Shown here one piece after another: positions 1 to 5,994 of a stretch of DNA of 64,000 bases. The DNA lies in assembly GCF_050920415.1 (NCBI RefSeq), contig NZ_CP169309.1; one strand, 5' to 3'. Both the position numbers and the translations under genes were made by a program. Below the pieces are notes generated by a model. The model saw only the letters and a program-made list of their open reading frames with translations. It searched no databases and had not been told where the DNA came from. Source of the stretch: Escherichia coli. GTDB lineage: Bacteria; Pseudomonadota; Gammaproteobacteria; Enterobacterales; Enterobacteriaceae. Position 1 is the stretch's first letter. The number at the start of each line of letters is the position of its first letter.

Positions 1-1739
1 ACGAAGGGGATAACCGTAAGGGCGTTAGTATTCGTGGTCTGGACAGCAGTTACACCCTGATTCTTGTCGATGGTAAACGCGTTAACTCCCGCAATGCCGT
101 TTTCCGCCATAATGATTTCGATCTGAACTGGATACCTGTCGACTCCATCGAGCGTATTGAAGTGGTCCGTGGCCCGATGTCGTCGCTGTACGGTTCCGAT
201 GCGCTCGGCGGTGTCGTGAATATCATCACCAAAAAAATCGGTCAGAAATGGTCGGGTACCGTTACTGTCGATACCACCATTCAGGAACATCGCGATCGCG
301 GTGATACCTATAACGGTCAGTTCTTTACCAGCGGACCATTAATTGACGGCGTGCTGGGAATGAAAGCTTACGGCAGCCTGGCAAAACGTGAAAAGGATGA
401 CCCACAAAACTCAACGACCACCGATACCGGAGAAACGCCGCGTATTGAAGGATTCTCCAGCCGCGACGGCAATGTGGAATTTGCCTGGACACCGAATCAA
501 AATCACGATTTTACCGCTGGATATGGTTTTGACCGTCAGGATCGTGATTCCGACTCGCTGGACAAAAACCGCCTGGAACGTCAGAACTACTCCGTTAGCC
601 ATAATGGGCGTTGGGATTACGGCACCAGCGAACTGAAATACTACGGTGAGAAAGTCGAAAACAAAAACCCTGGCAACAGCAGCCCGATTACTTCCGAAAG
701 CAATACGGTCGATGGTAAATACACGTTGCCACTGACGGCGATTAATCAGTTTGTTACGGTTGGCGGTGAATGGCGTCACGACAAACTTAGCGATGCAGTA
801 AACCTGACCGGAGGAACAAGCTCCAAAACGTCTGCCAGCCAGTACGCGCTGTTTGTGGAAGATGAATGGCGGATCTTCGAGCCGCTGGCGCTGACGACCG
901 GCGTGCGTATGGACGATCACGAAACCTACGGTGAACACTGGAGTCCTCGTGCCTACCTGGTTTACAACGCCACCGACACCGTAACGGTGAAAGGGGGCTG
1001 GGTGACGGCATTTAAAGCACCTTCTCTGTTGCAACTTAGCCCTGACTGGACGAGCAATTCCTGCCGTGGCGCATGTAAGATTGTGGGTAGCTCGGATCTG
1101 AAACCTGAAACCAGCGAAAGTTGGGAGCTGGGGCTTTACTACATGGGTGAAGAAGGCTGGCTGGAAGGGGTTGAATCCAGCGTGACCGTTTTCCGCAACG
1201 ATGTAAAAGATCGTATCAGCATCAGCCGTACGTCTGACGTCAATGCTGCTCCGGGCTACCAAAACTTTGTCGGTTTTACAGCGGACGGTGTGCCAGTATT
1301 CAGCTACTACAACGTTAACAAAGCACGTATTCAGGGCGTGGAAACCGAACTGAAAATTCCGTTCAACGATGAATGGAAACTGTCGATCAACTACACCTAC
1401 AACGATGGTCGTGATGTCAGCAACGGCGAAAACAAACCGTTGTCCGATCTGCCGTTCCATACCGCTAACGGTACGCTGGACTGGAAACCGCTGGCGCTGG
1501 AAGACTGGTCATTCTATGTTTCTGGTCACTATACCGGGCAGAAACGCGCCGACAGCGCGACGGCTAAAACTCCGGGCGGTTATACCATCTGGAATACCGG
1601 CGCGGCCTGGCAGGTGACCAAAGACGTCAAACTGCGTGCGGGTGTGCTGAACCTTGGCGACAAGGATCTCAGTCGTGACGACTACAGCTATAACGAAGAT
1701 GGACGTCGTTACTTTATGGCAGTGGATTATCGCTTCTGA
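1..1739 (+). CDS. cirA: TonB-dependent outer-membrane siderophore/colicin I receptor, 3' portion (5' end lies upstream of window)
   Basis: Frame is open from window start (translation [27 protein letters not shown]... continues into the 525-aa ORF) and ends with the aromatic C-terminal residue typical of TonB-dependent barrels (...DYRF*); synteny next to yeiG/folE. Confidence 0.85.
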
Positions 1740-1747
1740 TGCGAAGA

Positions 1748-1772
1748 TGCCCGGCGTGGATCCCGCCGGGCA
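1748..1772. terminator. GC-rich hairpin (gcccggcg-N7-cgccgggc) between convergent cirA and island transporter gene; possible bidirectional terminator
   Basis: Inverted repeat read directly in sequence; no strong U-tract on either side. Confidence 0.35.
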
Positions 1773-1797
1773 TAATCCCAGAAATTCGCTTCTGGCT

Positions 1798-3120
1798 TTA
1801 TAACCGATGAAATTTTGCCAGTAAGGCCAGTGAAAATGTTGTCAGCAAAATGGTAATGACTGCGTAAATATACACTCCTGACCATTCCCAACTGTTTTTC
1901 ACCATAATAACTGGAAGCCCTGCCATTGCCGCGCCTAAATAACTAAACAAGCCCCTGAATCCAGTAATGGAACCTGCCGCATCTTTATGCGTAACATCAA
2001 GACACCCGACAGCGAATAACATATGCGGTCCATACAATGCAAACCCCATGATTGTAAACAGAATAGCCGTTAATGTGTAGGAGACGTCCTGCACCAGCGG
2101 TACGAGAACGATGCAAATACATAAAGCGATGGCAAAGATTAATCCTGTCATCCAGCGGTTACTTTTAAACATGAAATCGGACAAGTACCCCGCCAGTAAT
2201 CCCCCAGCAAGTCCACCTGCTTCAAACCAGGATATAATGGAGTTCGCTTTAATCAGGCTCCAGTTATGAACCTGAGAATAATAAATTTGTGGCCAGTCAT
2301 TGAGGATGGTGCGTGCAATATAGACCGACATATCCCCGAGGATAATGAGCCAAACTAATGGGTTGGTAAGAATATATTTAACGAATATTTGCCAAAAACT
2401 GAGATCAACCGGACTTGCTTTAACTTGTGCAAGTTCTGTCGGGTCGTTGCGCCACTTACCGACGTTAGGCAAACCGAGCGTGCCGGGACGATCTTTTATC
2501 GTAAACAAGGCAACAATCCCCATAATCAGTGAGATTACACCCGGAACATAAAAGCCCATCTTCCAGCTGCCACTAAAAGCAATAGCAAAGCTTGTCAGGA
2601 GAGGCGCAAGACTACCGCCAATATTATGCGCAGCTTCAACAACTGCCCACCAGCGTCCGCGTTCATTTTTCGAGAACCACGAGGCCATAATTTTTGCCAT
2701 TGGCGGAAAACTGGTACCCTGGAGAATAGCATTAAGGCTATACAGGATATAGAACGCAGCAACGCTGTCTGAAAAACCGAAAAGAATGTTAACAATACCG
2801 ACGCCAATAAGTACGGGGCCAGTCATCGCTCGTGGGTTAATTTTATCGACTAACATGCCACCTACAAACTTCATGGAGCCATAAAGAATGTAAAAGACCG
2901 ACGACATGATAGCGAAATCTTGTGCGGTTAATGACGTATCCGTTAACATCGCTGGCATGGCCGCAGAGAAATTCTTGCGGGTTAAGTAAAATACGGCATA
3001 AGAGATAAATACAGAGGTGATGATTTCAATGCGAAATTTTTTATAAGTATGATCAACTTCTTCTTTTGGTTTGACCACCGGTTGGTCGGCCTGGCTGAAA
3101 ATAAATTTTTTCAAACTCAT
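1798..3120 (-). CDS. MFS transporter, organophosphate:phosphate antiporter family (UhpT/UhpC/GlpT/PgtP-like), 440 aa
   Basis: 440-aa polytopic protein with 12 predicted hydrophobic segments and motifs typical of sugar-phosphate/phosphoglycerate antiporters; not present at this position in the K-12 arrangement (cirA is directly followed by yeiG there). Confidence 0.75.
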   Translation of the reverse strand: MSLKKFIFSQADQPVVKPKEEVDHTYKKFRIEIITSVFISYAVFYLTRKNFSAAMPAMLTDTSLTAQDFAIMSSVFYILYGSMKFVGGMLVDKINPRAMTGPVLIGVGIVNILFGFSDSVAAFYILYSLNAILQGTSFPPMAKIMASWFSKNERGRWWAVVEAAHNIGGSLAPLLTSFAIAFSGSWKMGFYVPGVISLIMGIVALFTIKDRPGTLGLPNVGKWRNDPTELAQVKASPVDLSFWQIFVKYILTNPLVWLIILGDMSVYIARTILNDWPQIYYSQVHNWSLIKANSIISWFEAGGLAGGLLAGYLSDFMFKSNRWMTGLIFAIALCICIVLVPLVQDVSYTLTAILFTIMGFALYGPHMLFAVGCLDVTHKDAAGSITGFRGLFSYLGAAMAGLPVIMVKNSWEWSGVYIYAVITILLTTFSLALLAKFHRL

Positions 3121-3152
3121 TGTGAGTTTCCTTTTCTGTGAACCTTATGGCG

Positions 3153-4040
3153 CTATAATTTTTCTTCTATAAAAAAGAGAAGCGACTCGAAACCATTAAA
3201 ATTAATCTGGTCAGCAATTTTTTCCCGGGTTTTAGATTTTGCTTTCCATGCCACGCCATTTCCGGCATGCAAAAGCATAGGAATATCATTGGCACCATCT
3301 CCACAGGCAATGATGTTTTCACGGCAGATAGCTAACTCTGTCGCTAAATTTATCAGGGTTTGCTTTTTCTTTTCTGCATTCATAATAGGTAAGGTAATTG
3401 TATCAGTTAACAGATCTTCCTTAATGCGCACAGAGTTAGAAAATGCAAAATCAAGTTGATATTTTTCCTTCAATCGCTCAGTAAAAATATCCAAACCTCC
3501 AGATATAATTGCCGTCTTGAATCCTTTTTCTTTTAGTATGGGAAGAATAGTTTCAAGACCTGGTGAAAGAGTCATCTGTTCACAAACTTGATGCAATATA
3601 TCTTTATGCGTTCCTTTAAGCATGGCAATTCGCCGGGTAAAACTGGTATCAAAATCGATTTTCCCTTCCATCGCTTCACGGGTCAGTGCGGTGATTTTTT
3701 CAGAGATGCCGAGTCTACGGGCTATTTCATCGACACCTTCTTCTTCAACAAAGGTGGAATCCATATCAAAGGCAATAATTCCCTGATCCGGCAAGACCCT
3801 GGGTTTACGGAAAAAATCAAACTGATGATTATCAGCACGGTGACGTAAACCAGCATAAAAAGCAGGGTTGGTAACATCATCTGGTAATACTAGCTTTAGA
3901 TACTCTTTATTTATTTGCCCACTGTAATTCGTTGTTAGCGAAAACACCGAGGGGGAAATCTTTAAATGTTGCAGATAATCTTCCAGACATTTTTGGGTGA
4001 TGTCGATGCCTGTTGGCGACAAGAAATAAATAATCGTCAT
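3153..4040 (-). CDS. HAD-superfamily phosphoserine phosphatase (SerB-like paralog), 295 aa
   Basis: HAD motifs in translation: motif I 'AFDMDSTF', 'ISGGLD', motif IV 'CGDGANDIPML'; overall collinear with E. coli SerB catalytic domain. Confidence 0.8.
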   Translation of the reverse strand: MTIIYFLSPTGIDITQKCLEDYLQHLKISPSVFSLTTNYSGQINKEYLKLVLPDDVTNPAFYAGLRHRADNHQFDFFRKPRVLPDQGIIAFDMDSTFVEEEGVDEIARRLGISEKITALTREAMEGKIDFDTSFTRRIAMLKGTHKDILHQVCEQMTLSPGLETILPILKEKGFKTAIISGGLDIFTERLKEKYQLDFAFSNSVRIKEDLLTDTITLPIMNAEKKKQTLINLATELAICRENIIACGDGANDIPMLLHAGNGVAWKAKSKTREKIADQINFNGFESLLFFIEEKL

Positions 4041-4134
4041 TTACCGCTCCTTTTTATCTGCAATGATTATAATAAGATTTCATAGAGGCTGATGTATCTG
4101 ACAATCACAGTTGTGAATGTTAAATAAAAGATAA

Positions 4135-4195
4135 AAAAGTACTTTTTTTGATACTTTGAAATAATAAGATACTAAAAGTACCATTTTTGATATCT
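4135..4195. promoter_or_regulatory. Pair of ~20-bp direct repeats (aaaagtacYNtttttgatatc) in AT-rich divergent promoter region of the island
   Basis: Direct repeats at 4135-4155 and 4174-4195 seen in sequence; located between divergently transcribed SerB-like and serine dehydratase genes. Confidence 0.3.
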
Positions 4196-4250
4196 TTACC
4201 AGGATATAAAGAATAACTATTTTTCAACGTTGAAGGAATCATTTAAAAAT

Positions 4251-5603
4251 ATGGAAAGCTGCATAGATATATTCAAGATAGTTATTGGTCCATCCAGTTC
4301 CCGCACAGTCGGGCCAATGCGTGCGGCTTATAATTTTGTGTCACAATTGAAACAGCAAGAAATGTTACCTTTGTTGCGGAAAATTGATGTCGAACTTTAT
4401 GGTGCGCTGTCATTAAGCCGCAAGTGCCATAATGTTGATGTGGCGATTTATCTCGGTTTGCAAGGACACTTACCTGACAGCGTTGACATTCGCATGGAAA
4501 TGTCCGCCATCAGGCGTGCAGAAACTGAGGCGACGCTGGAAGTTATGCCTGGTGTCAACGTCAGTGTATCCATTCTTTCTAATCTACAAGCGCATCCGGG
4601 GCACCCTTATGCGATGACATTTCGTGCCAGAGATGACTGGTTTACACTTTATGAAGAAACCTGGTTTTCTATCGGCGACGGTCAAGTGCTAAAAGCAGGA
4701 GAGGCGATTATTCCTCCATCAGTCACTCCACATCCTTTTGAATTCCAGAACGCAAACGAATTATTAAAACTTTGTCAGCAAAATGGATTATCTGTCGCGG
4801 CATTAATGATGAAAAACGAACTGCACTGCCAGACAGCAGCTTTTTTGCATGACGATCTTCATAAAAAATGGGAAGTAATGAAGGATGCGGTTTATCGCGG
4901 GATGCATACAGAAGGATTACTTCCAGGTCCGTTTCAGGTTAACCGTCGTGCCTGTGCTTTATATAAATCGTTGCAGTCAAAGGGGTTTTCCAATGACTTC
5001 CTGACTACGCTCAATTGGGTCAATACTTTTGCCATTGCGGTGAGCGAAGAAAATGCTGCGGGTGGACGTGTCGTGACAGCACCCACCAACGGCGCGAGCG
5101 GTATTATCCCGGCTGTACTGTGCTGGTATGATAAATTCATTCACGAGCTTGATACATACTCCGTTACCCGCTTTTTACTGACCGCTGGTGCCATCGCCAT
5201 TCTGTTCAAAAAAAATGCCTCTATTCTGGGTTCTGAAGTTGGATGTCAGGGGGAAATAGGTGTTGCCAGTTCAATGGCGGCAGCAGGATTAGCAGAACTT
5301 ATGGGCGGGTCAGTGGCTCAGGTACTTAGCGCGGCAGAAATTGCGATGGAGCATCATTTAGGTTTGACCTGTGATCCAGTTGGCGGGCAGGTACAAATTC
5401 CTTGTATTGAACGAAATGCTATTTCAGCTGTGAAAGCTATCAACGCAACGACGATGGCGTTGAGTCGCATAAGCGAGCCGTGCATTACACTGGATGAGAT
5501 AATTTCCGCGATGTATGAAACCGGAAAGGATATGAGCGCTAAATACCGTGAAACTTATCATGGCTGTCTGAGCAAATTGCAGCCAAGAAAAAAGGATGCG
5601 TAA
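4251..5603 (+). CDS. L-serine dehydratase (iron-sulfur, SdaA/SdaB/TdcG family) paralog
   Basis: Translation aligns along its length with E. coli SdaA (e.g. '[12 protein letters not shown]', '[18 protein letters not shown]', '[19 protein letters not shown]', '[21 protein letters not shown]', '[14 protein letters not shown]'). ATG at 4251 matches SdaA N-terminus; an alternative TTG start at 4230 is possible. Confidence 0.85.
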
Positions 5604-5994
5604 GATGAAATATAATACGATGAATAACAACGAAATTATTTTATCACTGTGCGCTCGCATTAAAGAAACGCGTATCTCATTATCATTGACCCAACAGCAG
5701 TTAGCCGAGCGTGCATTGGTGGGCATAGCAACGGTCAAGCGGATTGAAAAGGGGGGAAGTTTAAATCTTGATACTCTCATTTCTCTTCTGCGCGCGCTGA
5801 ATAAATTGCAAAATCTCGATGCCATATTGTTCGAAGCAGAAATGCGTAATTTCAACGAAAATAGTTCCAGCGGCGAAGGGGCAGGGCGACTACAGGTACG
5901 CCAGCAACTGACAGATTTAAACCAGAAGTCTCCAGCCCCGCACGCAGATGACCATAATTTTAGTACGGCGCTGGAAAATACCCTCTGCTGGTGA
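5596..5994 (+). CDS. Small helix-turn-helix (XRE/Cro-like) transcriptional regulator with non-conserved C-terminal tail
   Basis: N-terminal segment 'ISLSLTQQQLAERALVGIATVKRIEKG' is a classic HTH_XRE signature; start overlaps serine dehydratase stop; stop codon abuts yeiG stop back-to-back. Confidence 0.55.
   Translation: MRKMKYNTMNNNEIILSLCARIKETRISLSLTQQQLAERALVGIATVKRIEKGGSLNLDTLISLLRALNKLQNLDAILFEAEMRNFNENSSSGEGAGRLQVRQQLTDLNQKSPAPHADDHNFSTALENTLCW

Follow-up and report, generated by a model that had tools for sequence, protein, structure and literature searches.

Several small dimeric operator binders of the XRE type have been solved structurally, including 4ghj, HipB of Shewanella and of Legionella, ClgR and C.Esp1396I. 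C.Esp1396I brings about activation and then repression in a concentration-dependent manner. HipB recognises the operator TATCC-N8-GGATA and carries a disordered C-terminal tail whose conserved terminal tryptophan (Trp88) is a Lon degron (PMC3376134). These proteins are the closest solved structures to an XRE-family regulator of 129 amino acids (aa) that is encoded in a 64,000-nucleotide stretch of Escherichia coli DNA (contig NZ_CP169309.1; the whole stretch is referred to as the window), where it belongs to a four-gene cassette with a divergent control region at 4041-4250.

Here we present a comparative analysis of this control region. Two sites within it, R1 (4135-4156) and R2 (4174-4195), are under selection, are dyad-symmetric and co-occur with the regulator family in two unrelated promoter contexts. 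Comparative evidence strongly supports reading the two sites as operators, and the protein for which they serve is probably the co-encoded 129-aa XRE regulator.

Paired dyad sites in a divergent control region

The control region separates the start codon of a SerB-like phosphatase gene (4040-4038, - strand), at the head of the SerB-like/MFS operon, from the ATG of an L-serine dehydratase gene (4251, + strand), at the head of the dehydratase/XRE operon. An earlier note, written from the letters of the window alone, had described an AT-rich region of 190 bp between divergent genes that contains two direct repeats and a short palindrome, and had proposed these elements as operator sites, possibly for the XRE regulator. 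The divergent gene pair and the AT-richness (GC 25%) hold; the length is 210 bp. The direct repeats are found where they had been placed, and correspond to the 22-mers AAAAGTACTTTTTTTGATACTT (4135-4156) and AAAAGTACCATTTTTGATATCT (4174-4195), with 17 of 19 positions matching at an offset of 39 between 4135-4153 and 4174-4192. Among 2000 dinucleotide-preserving shuffles of the control region, a match of 17/19 was reached in a single one and a match of 18/22 in 12. The repeat exceeds chance, the AT-rich DNA notwithstanding.

Footprinting was based on ten cassette orthologues from E. coli, Citrobacter, Salmonella, Scandinavium and metagenomic sequences, whose regulators are 64-76% identical to that of E. 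coli. Column identity over these orthologues is about 30-60% outside the conserved islands and about 80-95% inside R1 and R2. The control region has four such islands, namely ATTATAAT (4066-4073), ATCACAG (4104-4110), R1 and R2. The positions that are invariant in all ten are T4145-4149, T4152 and A4153 for R1, and A4176, G4178, T4185-4188 and A4190-A4192 for R2. Both sites share four or five consecutive T and the ATA within GATA(C/T); R2 adds the A.G of AAGGTAT. Five diverged E. coli copies are 93-96% identical in the region, with substitutions that fall nearly all outside both cores.

Each site is an imperfect palindrome of the form (A)AGTATC-N6-GATAC(CT), in which the half-site centres are 11 bp apart and the T-tract at the centre is invariant. 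The 20 sites of the footprinting set have the consensus AAAAGTATC(G/A)TTTTTGATAC(C), and the facing half-sites the consensus AAGGTATCA. R2, with the core GTACCATTTTTGATAT (4178-4193), scores 27.8 with a position weight matrix (PWM) of the motif, and its core in other genera reads GTATCATTTTTGATAT, equivalent to TATCA-N4-TGATA. R1, with the core GTACTTTTTTTGATAC (4139-4154), scores 24.7 and combines a strong right half-site, GATAC, with a weak and degenerate left one (GTATTG, in E. coli GTACTT). A half-site matrix detects facing half-sites in both R1 and R2 of E. coli; in the other orthologues one or both are detected. The distance between R1 and R2 is tightly kept, at 39 bp centre to centre in E. 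coli, 40 bp in the C. freundii group and 39-40 bp across the orthologues. Being dyad-symmetric copies, the 'direct repeats' thus take the form that is expected for a dimeric helix-turn-helix protein.

The left half-sites of R1 (4139-4142) and R2 (4178-4181) both read GTAC in E. coli and GTAT elsewhere. The E. coli regulator differs from most orthologues at Q38L and I44V, in the turn and the recognition helix, and one metagenomic orthologue (P0005) has both substitutions. The pairing of GTAC with Q38L/I44V could reflect co-variation of operator and regulator, or conversion between the repeats.

Recurrence of the motif beside a family of regulators

The 22-bp PWM was built solely from the 20 cassette sites. 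At a score of at least 10 it finds R1 and R2 only in the 64-kb window, both strands included. Across about 0.9 Mb of fetched loci that belong neither to the cassette type nor to the Pantoea type described below, only three isolated matches score at least 14. All cassette loci with a contig that covers the intergenic region carry both sites, with only R2 above threshold in one Logan locus (L066). The E. coli K-12 dehydratase loci sdaA, sdaCB and tdc, which have no such regulator, yield no PWM match of at least 11.

An exhaustive profile search for the regulator recovered more distant full-length relatives. One of them, a Pantoea protein, is 47% identical to the E. coli regulator over the matched stretch of the profile search (38% in the alignment) and adjoins a different operon, in which an sdaC-like serine/threonine transporter gene is followed by a serine dehydratase gene. 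The 10.4-kb Pantoea locus has only two PWM matches of at least 8, with scores of 20.0 and 16.9, and both fall in the 491-bp region that precedes the transporter gene, with their starts separated by 36 bp. In 1000 shuffles of this 491-bp region the second-best score never exceeded 7.6, compared to the 16.9 observed.

Scanning metagenomes with an alignment of the regulator relatives gave 46 loci of this second type. Their dehydratase gene is convergent to the regulator gene in 41 of the 41 loci with enough sequence. Of the 46 loci, 31 extend 230 bp or more beyond the start of the transporter gene, and 30 of these (24 of 25 distinct sequences) have a PWM match of at least 14 at 100-260 bp upstream of that gene. 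The two sites of the second type have opposite T-tract orientations, and the distal one is a near-perfect palindrome. The paralogous regulators of these Pantoea- and Klebsiella-like loci show about 40-47% identity. In both locus types the recognition helix is conserved, as GIAT(I/V)KRIE, or GTATIKRAE in Pantoea, which fits a shared half-site.

A regulator relative with 36% identity (P0059) is also encoded directly downstream of a serine dehydratase gene on a GC-rich metagenome contig (L069, 1-2129). The linkage between regulator and dehydratase therefore reaches beyond Enterobacterales, into a high-GC organism. The 290 bp of upstream sequence on this contig contain no AT-type motif that we could see, a result that is uninformative for the operator. 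Another apparent relative, 49% identical (P0049 on L068, Logan SRR8137538), was discarded: the contig has no cytosines and is an assembly of bisulfite-converted reads, so its proteins are artefacts.

An RNA element was considered for the repeats and is disfavoured because the T-tracts have opposite orientations in the second locus type and because no Rfam match at E <= 1 is present in 3900-4400 on either strand. The combination of GTAC and GATA in E. coli also places C-A mismatches in both putative hairpins.

The regulator gene itself occupies 5605-5994 on the + strand. The length of 132 aa given by the earlier note assumed the ATG at 5596; RefSeq and all orthologues begin with MKY at 5605, and the protein is 129 aa long. 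It matches Pfam HTH_3 (PF01381) with E = 3.5e-9, and each of its fold neighbours is a protein of the XRE type. AlphaFold2 predicts a five-helix domain at residues 8-86, with a predicted local distance difference test score (pLDDT) above 84 for residues 11-70, and disorder for residues 84-129. The cassette orthologues hardly vary in the recognition helix, GIAT(I/V)KRIEKG. The tail (84-129) is variable, but throughout the family it retains a stretch rich in Arg and a Tyr/Phe...Trp motif whose tryptophan lies at the C-terminus or close to it (last or second-last residue in the cassette orthologues). Sensing of a signal through the conserved tail, by binding of a partner or by proteolysis, is speculation. 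We presume, from the LT2 gene order and from the presence of the protein in LT2, that STM2195 of Salmonella is this regulator gene. STM2195, listed as a 'putative DNA-binding protein', has no K-12 orthologue and sustains few transposon insertions when S. Typhimurium is grown in LB, with an insertion percentile of 15-17th versus about 36-65 in Typhi (PMC3487940).

A third conserved box, candidate promoters and competing explanations

The remaining element of the earlier proposal, the short palindrome TCACA-GT-TGTGA, is present at 4105-4116, close to the approximate 4104-4116 given before. Its left arm plus one base forms the conserved box ATCACAG at 4104-4110 (CTGTGAT on the - strand), in which T4105-A4109 are invariant in the ten orthologues and G4110 is kept in 90%. 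Salmonella and two metagenomic orthologues have other bases in place of the right arm TGTGA, so that the symmetry is incidental. In the shuffles, palindromes with 5-bp arms that contain G/C are expected 0.36 times per shuffle, the observed count (two or more) is reached in 7% of shuffles, and TCACA-GT-TGTGA alone is not significant. Judging by these alignments, the short palindrome is a conserved asymmetric box inside a module of fixed geometry. The operator proposal can thus be retained for the two repeats, with their footprints, their dyads and a motif that tracks the regulator family, and is not supported in its original form for the short palindrome. A perfect 12-bp palindrome, TTCAACGTTGAA, at 4223-4234 shortly precedes the ribosome-binding site of the dehydratase gene; six E. 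coli copies keep it without change, and other genera do not conserve it.

Read on the - strand, the cassette module consists of R2, 39-40 bp, R1, 39-40 bp, CTGTGAT, 31-32 nt, TATAAT, about 25 nt and ATG, and a hand count for E. coli gives 40 bp from R1 to the box and 32 nt from the box to the -10. The module of the second locus type runs toward the transporter gene as distal site, 38-39 bp, proximal site, 39-40 bp, TGTGATCGC, 32 nt, TAAAAT, 75-81 nt and ATG (for example L071 8222-8480). The control regions of the two types are otherwise unalignable, so that the common geometry argues for one functional module. In the cassette this module faces the SerB-like/transporter operon.

As a third half-site of the repeat motif the box has no match to the half-site PWM, apart from a neighbouring CAGATATCA in Salmonella. 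The palindrome is not a CRP site (TGTGA-N6-TCACA) either, as its arms stand in reverse order with a 2-bp spacer. When the - strand CTGTGA is taken as one CRP half, the sequence 6 bp away agrees with TCACA at 0 of 5 positions in cassette loci and at 2 of 5 positions in the second locus type, and the box is not a CRP site because the second half is absent at N6. A by-eye comparison of the box and the repeats with CRP, pho box, ArgR, Cra, Fis and IHF sites showed no fit, which gives weak exclusions. The 9-mer ATCACAGTT of window positions 4104-4112 occurs identically in E. coli K-12 about 440 bp upstream of sdaC (L079 5789-5797), with a chance expectation of roughly 0.005. That K-12 region has neither an XRE gene nor the palindromes, and with respect to sdaC the 9-mer is inverted compared to the Pantoea-type loci.

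Consensus scoring across orthologues identifies one robust promoter element, the - strand -10, and no robust + strand promoter. The candidate -10 of the SerB-like/MFS operon, TATAAT at 4066-4071 on the - strand, is contained in the self-complementary octamer ATTATAAT (4066-4073) and has the highest summed promoter score of either strand in the consensus scan. Its column reads TATAAT, TACAAT, TATGAT or TACACT in 10/10 orthologues, with -35 hexamers that are weak and variable. A start of transcription about 7 nt past this hexamer, near 4059, would put the palindromes at about -87 and -126 and the box between about -50 and -45. For the dehydratase/XRE operon, the + strand of E. coli offers TTGAAA (4156-4161)-17-TACCAT (4179-4184), spanning 4156-4184, as its best sigma-70-like candidate. 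Its inferred -10, TACCAT, is the left half-site of R2, and its -35 is unconserved in other genera. The alternative candidate, TTGATA (4187-4192)-16-AAGAAT, takes the TTGATA of R2 as its -35. R2 therefore overlaps the best + strand candidates, as -10 or as -35, with -35/-10 partners that are unconserved.

From this arrangement we infer binding by the XRE protein, a sign of regulation at each promoter and a signal. Dimers of the protein would occupy R2, the better palindrome, and, cooperatively, R1. Protein bound at R2 would hinder RNA polymerase at either + strand candidate and so repress the dehydratase/regulator operon, which would amount to negative autoregulation. The same array, upstream of a phosphatase/transporter promoter that has no recognisable -35, may activate that promoter or repress it through higher-order complexes. 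Overall, the region would work as a two-way switch comparable to the OR region of lambda.

Several observations weigh against assigning the sites to the XRE protein. Conservation peaks in the central T-tract and not in the half-sites. Such a pattern is uncommon where bases alone are read out, and a promoter, UP-like or architectural-protein function would suit it as well. The 39-bp centre spacing is about 3.7 helical turns, a non-integer number that does not readily suggest simple cooperativity on one face of the helix. The motif is missing from one second-type locus (L120). The dehydratase is common to both contexts as well as the regulator, and an unlinked serine-responsive factor is formally possible. 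The AlphaFold2 model of the regulator contains no predicted sensor or ligand-binding domain, and the inducer-responsive role that the earlier note had tentatively given to the repeats, with phosphoserine and serine as candidate inducers, is an assumption.

A further difficulty is that the right halves of both repeats contain TTGATA, a -35-like hexamer. A promoter function could account for some of the conservation in place of an operator, and in its strongest form this explanation makes the repeats primarily promoter DNA, kept by RNA polymerase either as a T-tract (UP-like) followed by a TTGATA -35 or as left halves TAT(C/T)(A/G)T that resemble a -10. The consensus scans do use R2 for a -35 or a -10, and the proximal site of the Pantoea- and Klebsiella-like loci retains mainly TTTTGAT(A/G)C, that is the TTGATA half, with (T/G)ATAAA 15-16 bp downstream. 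However, the G of TTGATA varies (12 G, 5 A and 3 T in the 20 sites), and the flanking ATA and GTAT are conserved. That G position is normally among the best conserved in a -35. Moreover, the ten orthologues share no conserved -10 at 16-18 bp after either repeat, the distal site of the second type, a near-perfect palindrome in opposite orientation, is too far from any -10, and the dyad symmetry is left unexplained. We consider a purely promoter-based origin unlikely. Still less likely, in our estimate, is that a general nucleoid or global protein (IHF, Fis, H-NS or Lrp) binds the sites and shapes the AT-rich region, with the XRE protein acting elsewhere. Such a role would suit a region of 25% GC with A/T tracts, in a cassette whose GC is below that of its flanks, as is frequent in horizontally acquired H-NS targets, and TATCAA, with which the IHF core WATCAANNNNTTR begins, is found on the reverse strand of each site. 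On inspection of the sequence, however, the TTR part of that core is missing from R1 and R2. The conservation is sharp and site-specific amid equally AT-rich unconserved DNA, and the motif, absent from the rest of the window and from K-12 sdaA, sdaCB and tdc, recurs only beside the regulator family.

Pure chance deserves next to no credence. On this reading the repeats would have no function in low-complexity AT-rich DNA. AT-richness does inflate short repeats and palindromes, and the palindrome with 5-bp arms alone is not significant, but the repeat was matched in just 1 of 2000 shuffles, and the sites persist across four genera, stay nearly invariant in the diverged E. coli copies and recur in a second locus type. 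A different kind of alternative keeps the same protein on the same sites and makes it an activator, with the palindromes and the box recruiting RNA polymerase to the -35-less transporter-side promoter and with repression of the dehydratase operon absent or secondary. The - strand -10 is indeed conserved without a -35, and the module geometry of both locus types points to the transporter-first operon, with the box and the sites at the positions calculated above. Klebsiella-like loci have their strong palindrome in the distal and their weak one in the proximal position, as is usual for activators. On the other side, those positions rest on an assumed transcription start, R2 overlaps the best + strand promoter candidates, and the few insertions in STM2195 (PMC3487940) fit a repressor better if STM2195 is the regulator, although gene identity and effect are both weak. 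We regard this activator variant as a possibility to be taken seriously, though not as the more likely one, and tentatively keep repression of the dehydratase/regulator operon as part of the operator reading.

The cassette and its relation to known systems

Open reading frames and the RefSeq annotation place the cassette of four genes between cirA and yeiG, at 1798-5994 of the window. On the - strand, the SerB-like phosphoserine phosphatase gene (3153-4040) is first in its operon and is accompanied by the gene (1798-3120) for a UhpC/PgtP/GlpT-like MFS transporter, of the organophosphate:phosphate antiporter type. On the + strand, the L-serine ammonia-lyase (dehydratase) gene (4251-5603) is first, and the regulator gene follows. 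Phosphatase and lyase pass their NCBI equivalog cut-offs, with 205.8 bits versus 144 for TIGR00338 and 547 bits versus 345 for TIGR00720, respectively. The transporter matches the UhpC subfamily NF008661 (E = 1.7e-127) and TIGR00881 (E = 1.8e-102), both below the curated cut-offs. Family membership alone predicts that phosphoserine, or a related organophosphate, is imported, dephosphorylated and deaminated to pyruvate.

The cassette is rare in E. coli. Its intergenic region is found in 86 of 5426 complete E. coli genomes, 85 of which hold at least 80% of a 3.9-kb stretch spanning the cassette, and the E. coli chromosome NZ_CP169399.1 is 100% identical to the region. The GC content of the cassette is 36-47%, against 51-53% in the flanks. 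The same position between cirA and yeiG is occupied in Scandinavium, Citrobacter koseri, C. freundii, another Citrobacter and Salmonella enterica, including subsp. diarizonae. The S. enterica regulator matches the UniRef entry Q8ZNL4_SALTY, which comprises 176 Salmonella sequences, and S. bongori is also positive. The regulator is core in Salmonella and Citrobacter koseri and rare in E. coli, with paralogues in Pantoea- and Klebsiella-like bacteria. In E. coli strain 90-3040 (L074, NZ_CP027459.1 647012-648365) the cassette dehydratase is annotated as frameshifted (pseudogene) and the control region is intact. In a protein collection clustered at 90% identity, the Salmonella regulator (129 aa; L136:4001-4387) falls under a 455-aa serine dehydratase representative, a sign that the neighbouring genes may be fused or wrongly clustered in some records.

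Serine catabolism matters for the fitness of enteric bacteria in the inflamed gut and the urinary tract. A strain-variable, separately regulated route could hence be physiologically relevant. Literature searches on the cassette, on STM2195-2198, on phosphoserine transport and on XRE with sdaC returned nothing relevant except the transposon-sequencing (Tn-seq) table entry for STM2195, and our analysis frames what would be a phosphoserine uptake-and-catabolism cassette. It also yields a concrete operator sequence, GTATC-N6-GATAC, paired 39-40 bp apart, together with a candidate regulon logic for an uncharacterised regulator. In a broader and rather doubtful extension of these results, the regulator would be the founder of an XRE subfamily dedicated to L-serine dehydratase modules in Enterobacterales, with two or three gene arrangements that each adjoin a dehydratase. 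Sensing would then proceed via the tail, by docking on the dehydratase as a 'trigger enzyme' or by regulated proteolysis as for HipB, and a module of three elements with 39-40-bp phasing would serve antiporter, then phosphatase, then deaminase in a lambda-OR-like bidirectional switch for scavenging external phosphoserine, a route with no earlier description.

As proposed here, the mechanism is a conventional repressor/operator arrangement, made less conventional by a regulator with no predicted sensor domain and by a conserved third box. The kind of switch is well known, and the arrangement adds a new member to it, attached to a regulator subfamily that has yet to be characterised and to a putative cassette for phosphoserine catabolism that has not been described before. 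The dehydratase belongs to the same enzyme family as those of K-12 sdaA, sdaCB and tdcABCDEFG, and the second locus type has the sdaC-sdaB gene order, but no XRE gene adjoins the K-12 loci, and the motif is absent from them.

HipB offers a family resemblance. The best NCBIfam match of the regulator is the HipB-type Y4mF family, and Shewanella and Legionella HipB are among its nearest folds, with 37-38% identity over about 55 residues. A TATC/GATA core and a disordered tail with a tryptophan at or near its end are common to HipB and the regulator, as a resemblance only. The distance between TATC and GATA is 6 bp here versus 10 in the HipB operator, and there are two sites here versus four. Assignment to HipB proper was considered and rejected. 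The match to the HipB family model (TIGR03070) reaches 41.2 bits versus a cut-off of 71.65, and pairwise BLASTP with an E. coli HipB query gives E = 0.97, which is not significant. The sites read GTATC-N6-GATAC instead of TATCC-N8-GGATA, and the neighbours of the regulator gene are the dehydratase gene and yeiG, with no HipA kinase or toxin gene nearby.

C.Esp1396I, likewise a structural neighbour, is a small five-helix dimer that acts on two adjacent dyad operators upstream of its own operon. Its C-boxes are contiguous (about 35 bp in total), tetramer-bound and unrelated in sequence to the sites described here, and the cassette is not accompanied by restriction-modification genes.

In overall design the closest analogy is the Cro/C1 switch of lambda and 434, with an OR region between the divergent promoters PR and PRM. 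The cassette is non-phage, its proposed operators are 39-40 bp apart whereas those of lambda and 434 are adjacent (about 23-24 bp), and it has two clear sites and an unrelated box, with a half-site, GTATC, that is unrelated too. The regulator has a long disordered tail in place of a C-terminal domain for oligomerisation and RecA cleavage. What the systems share, on the operator reading, is a small HTH_3 regulator (434 Cro is a PDB sequence match at E = 0.0011), dyad operators whose half-sites are about one helical turn apart around an A/T-rich, non-contacted centre, and a set of operators of differing strength, placed between divergent promoters of which one drives the regulator gene.

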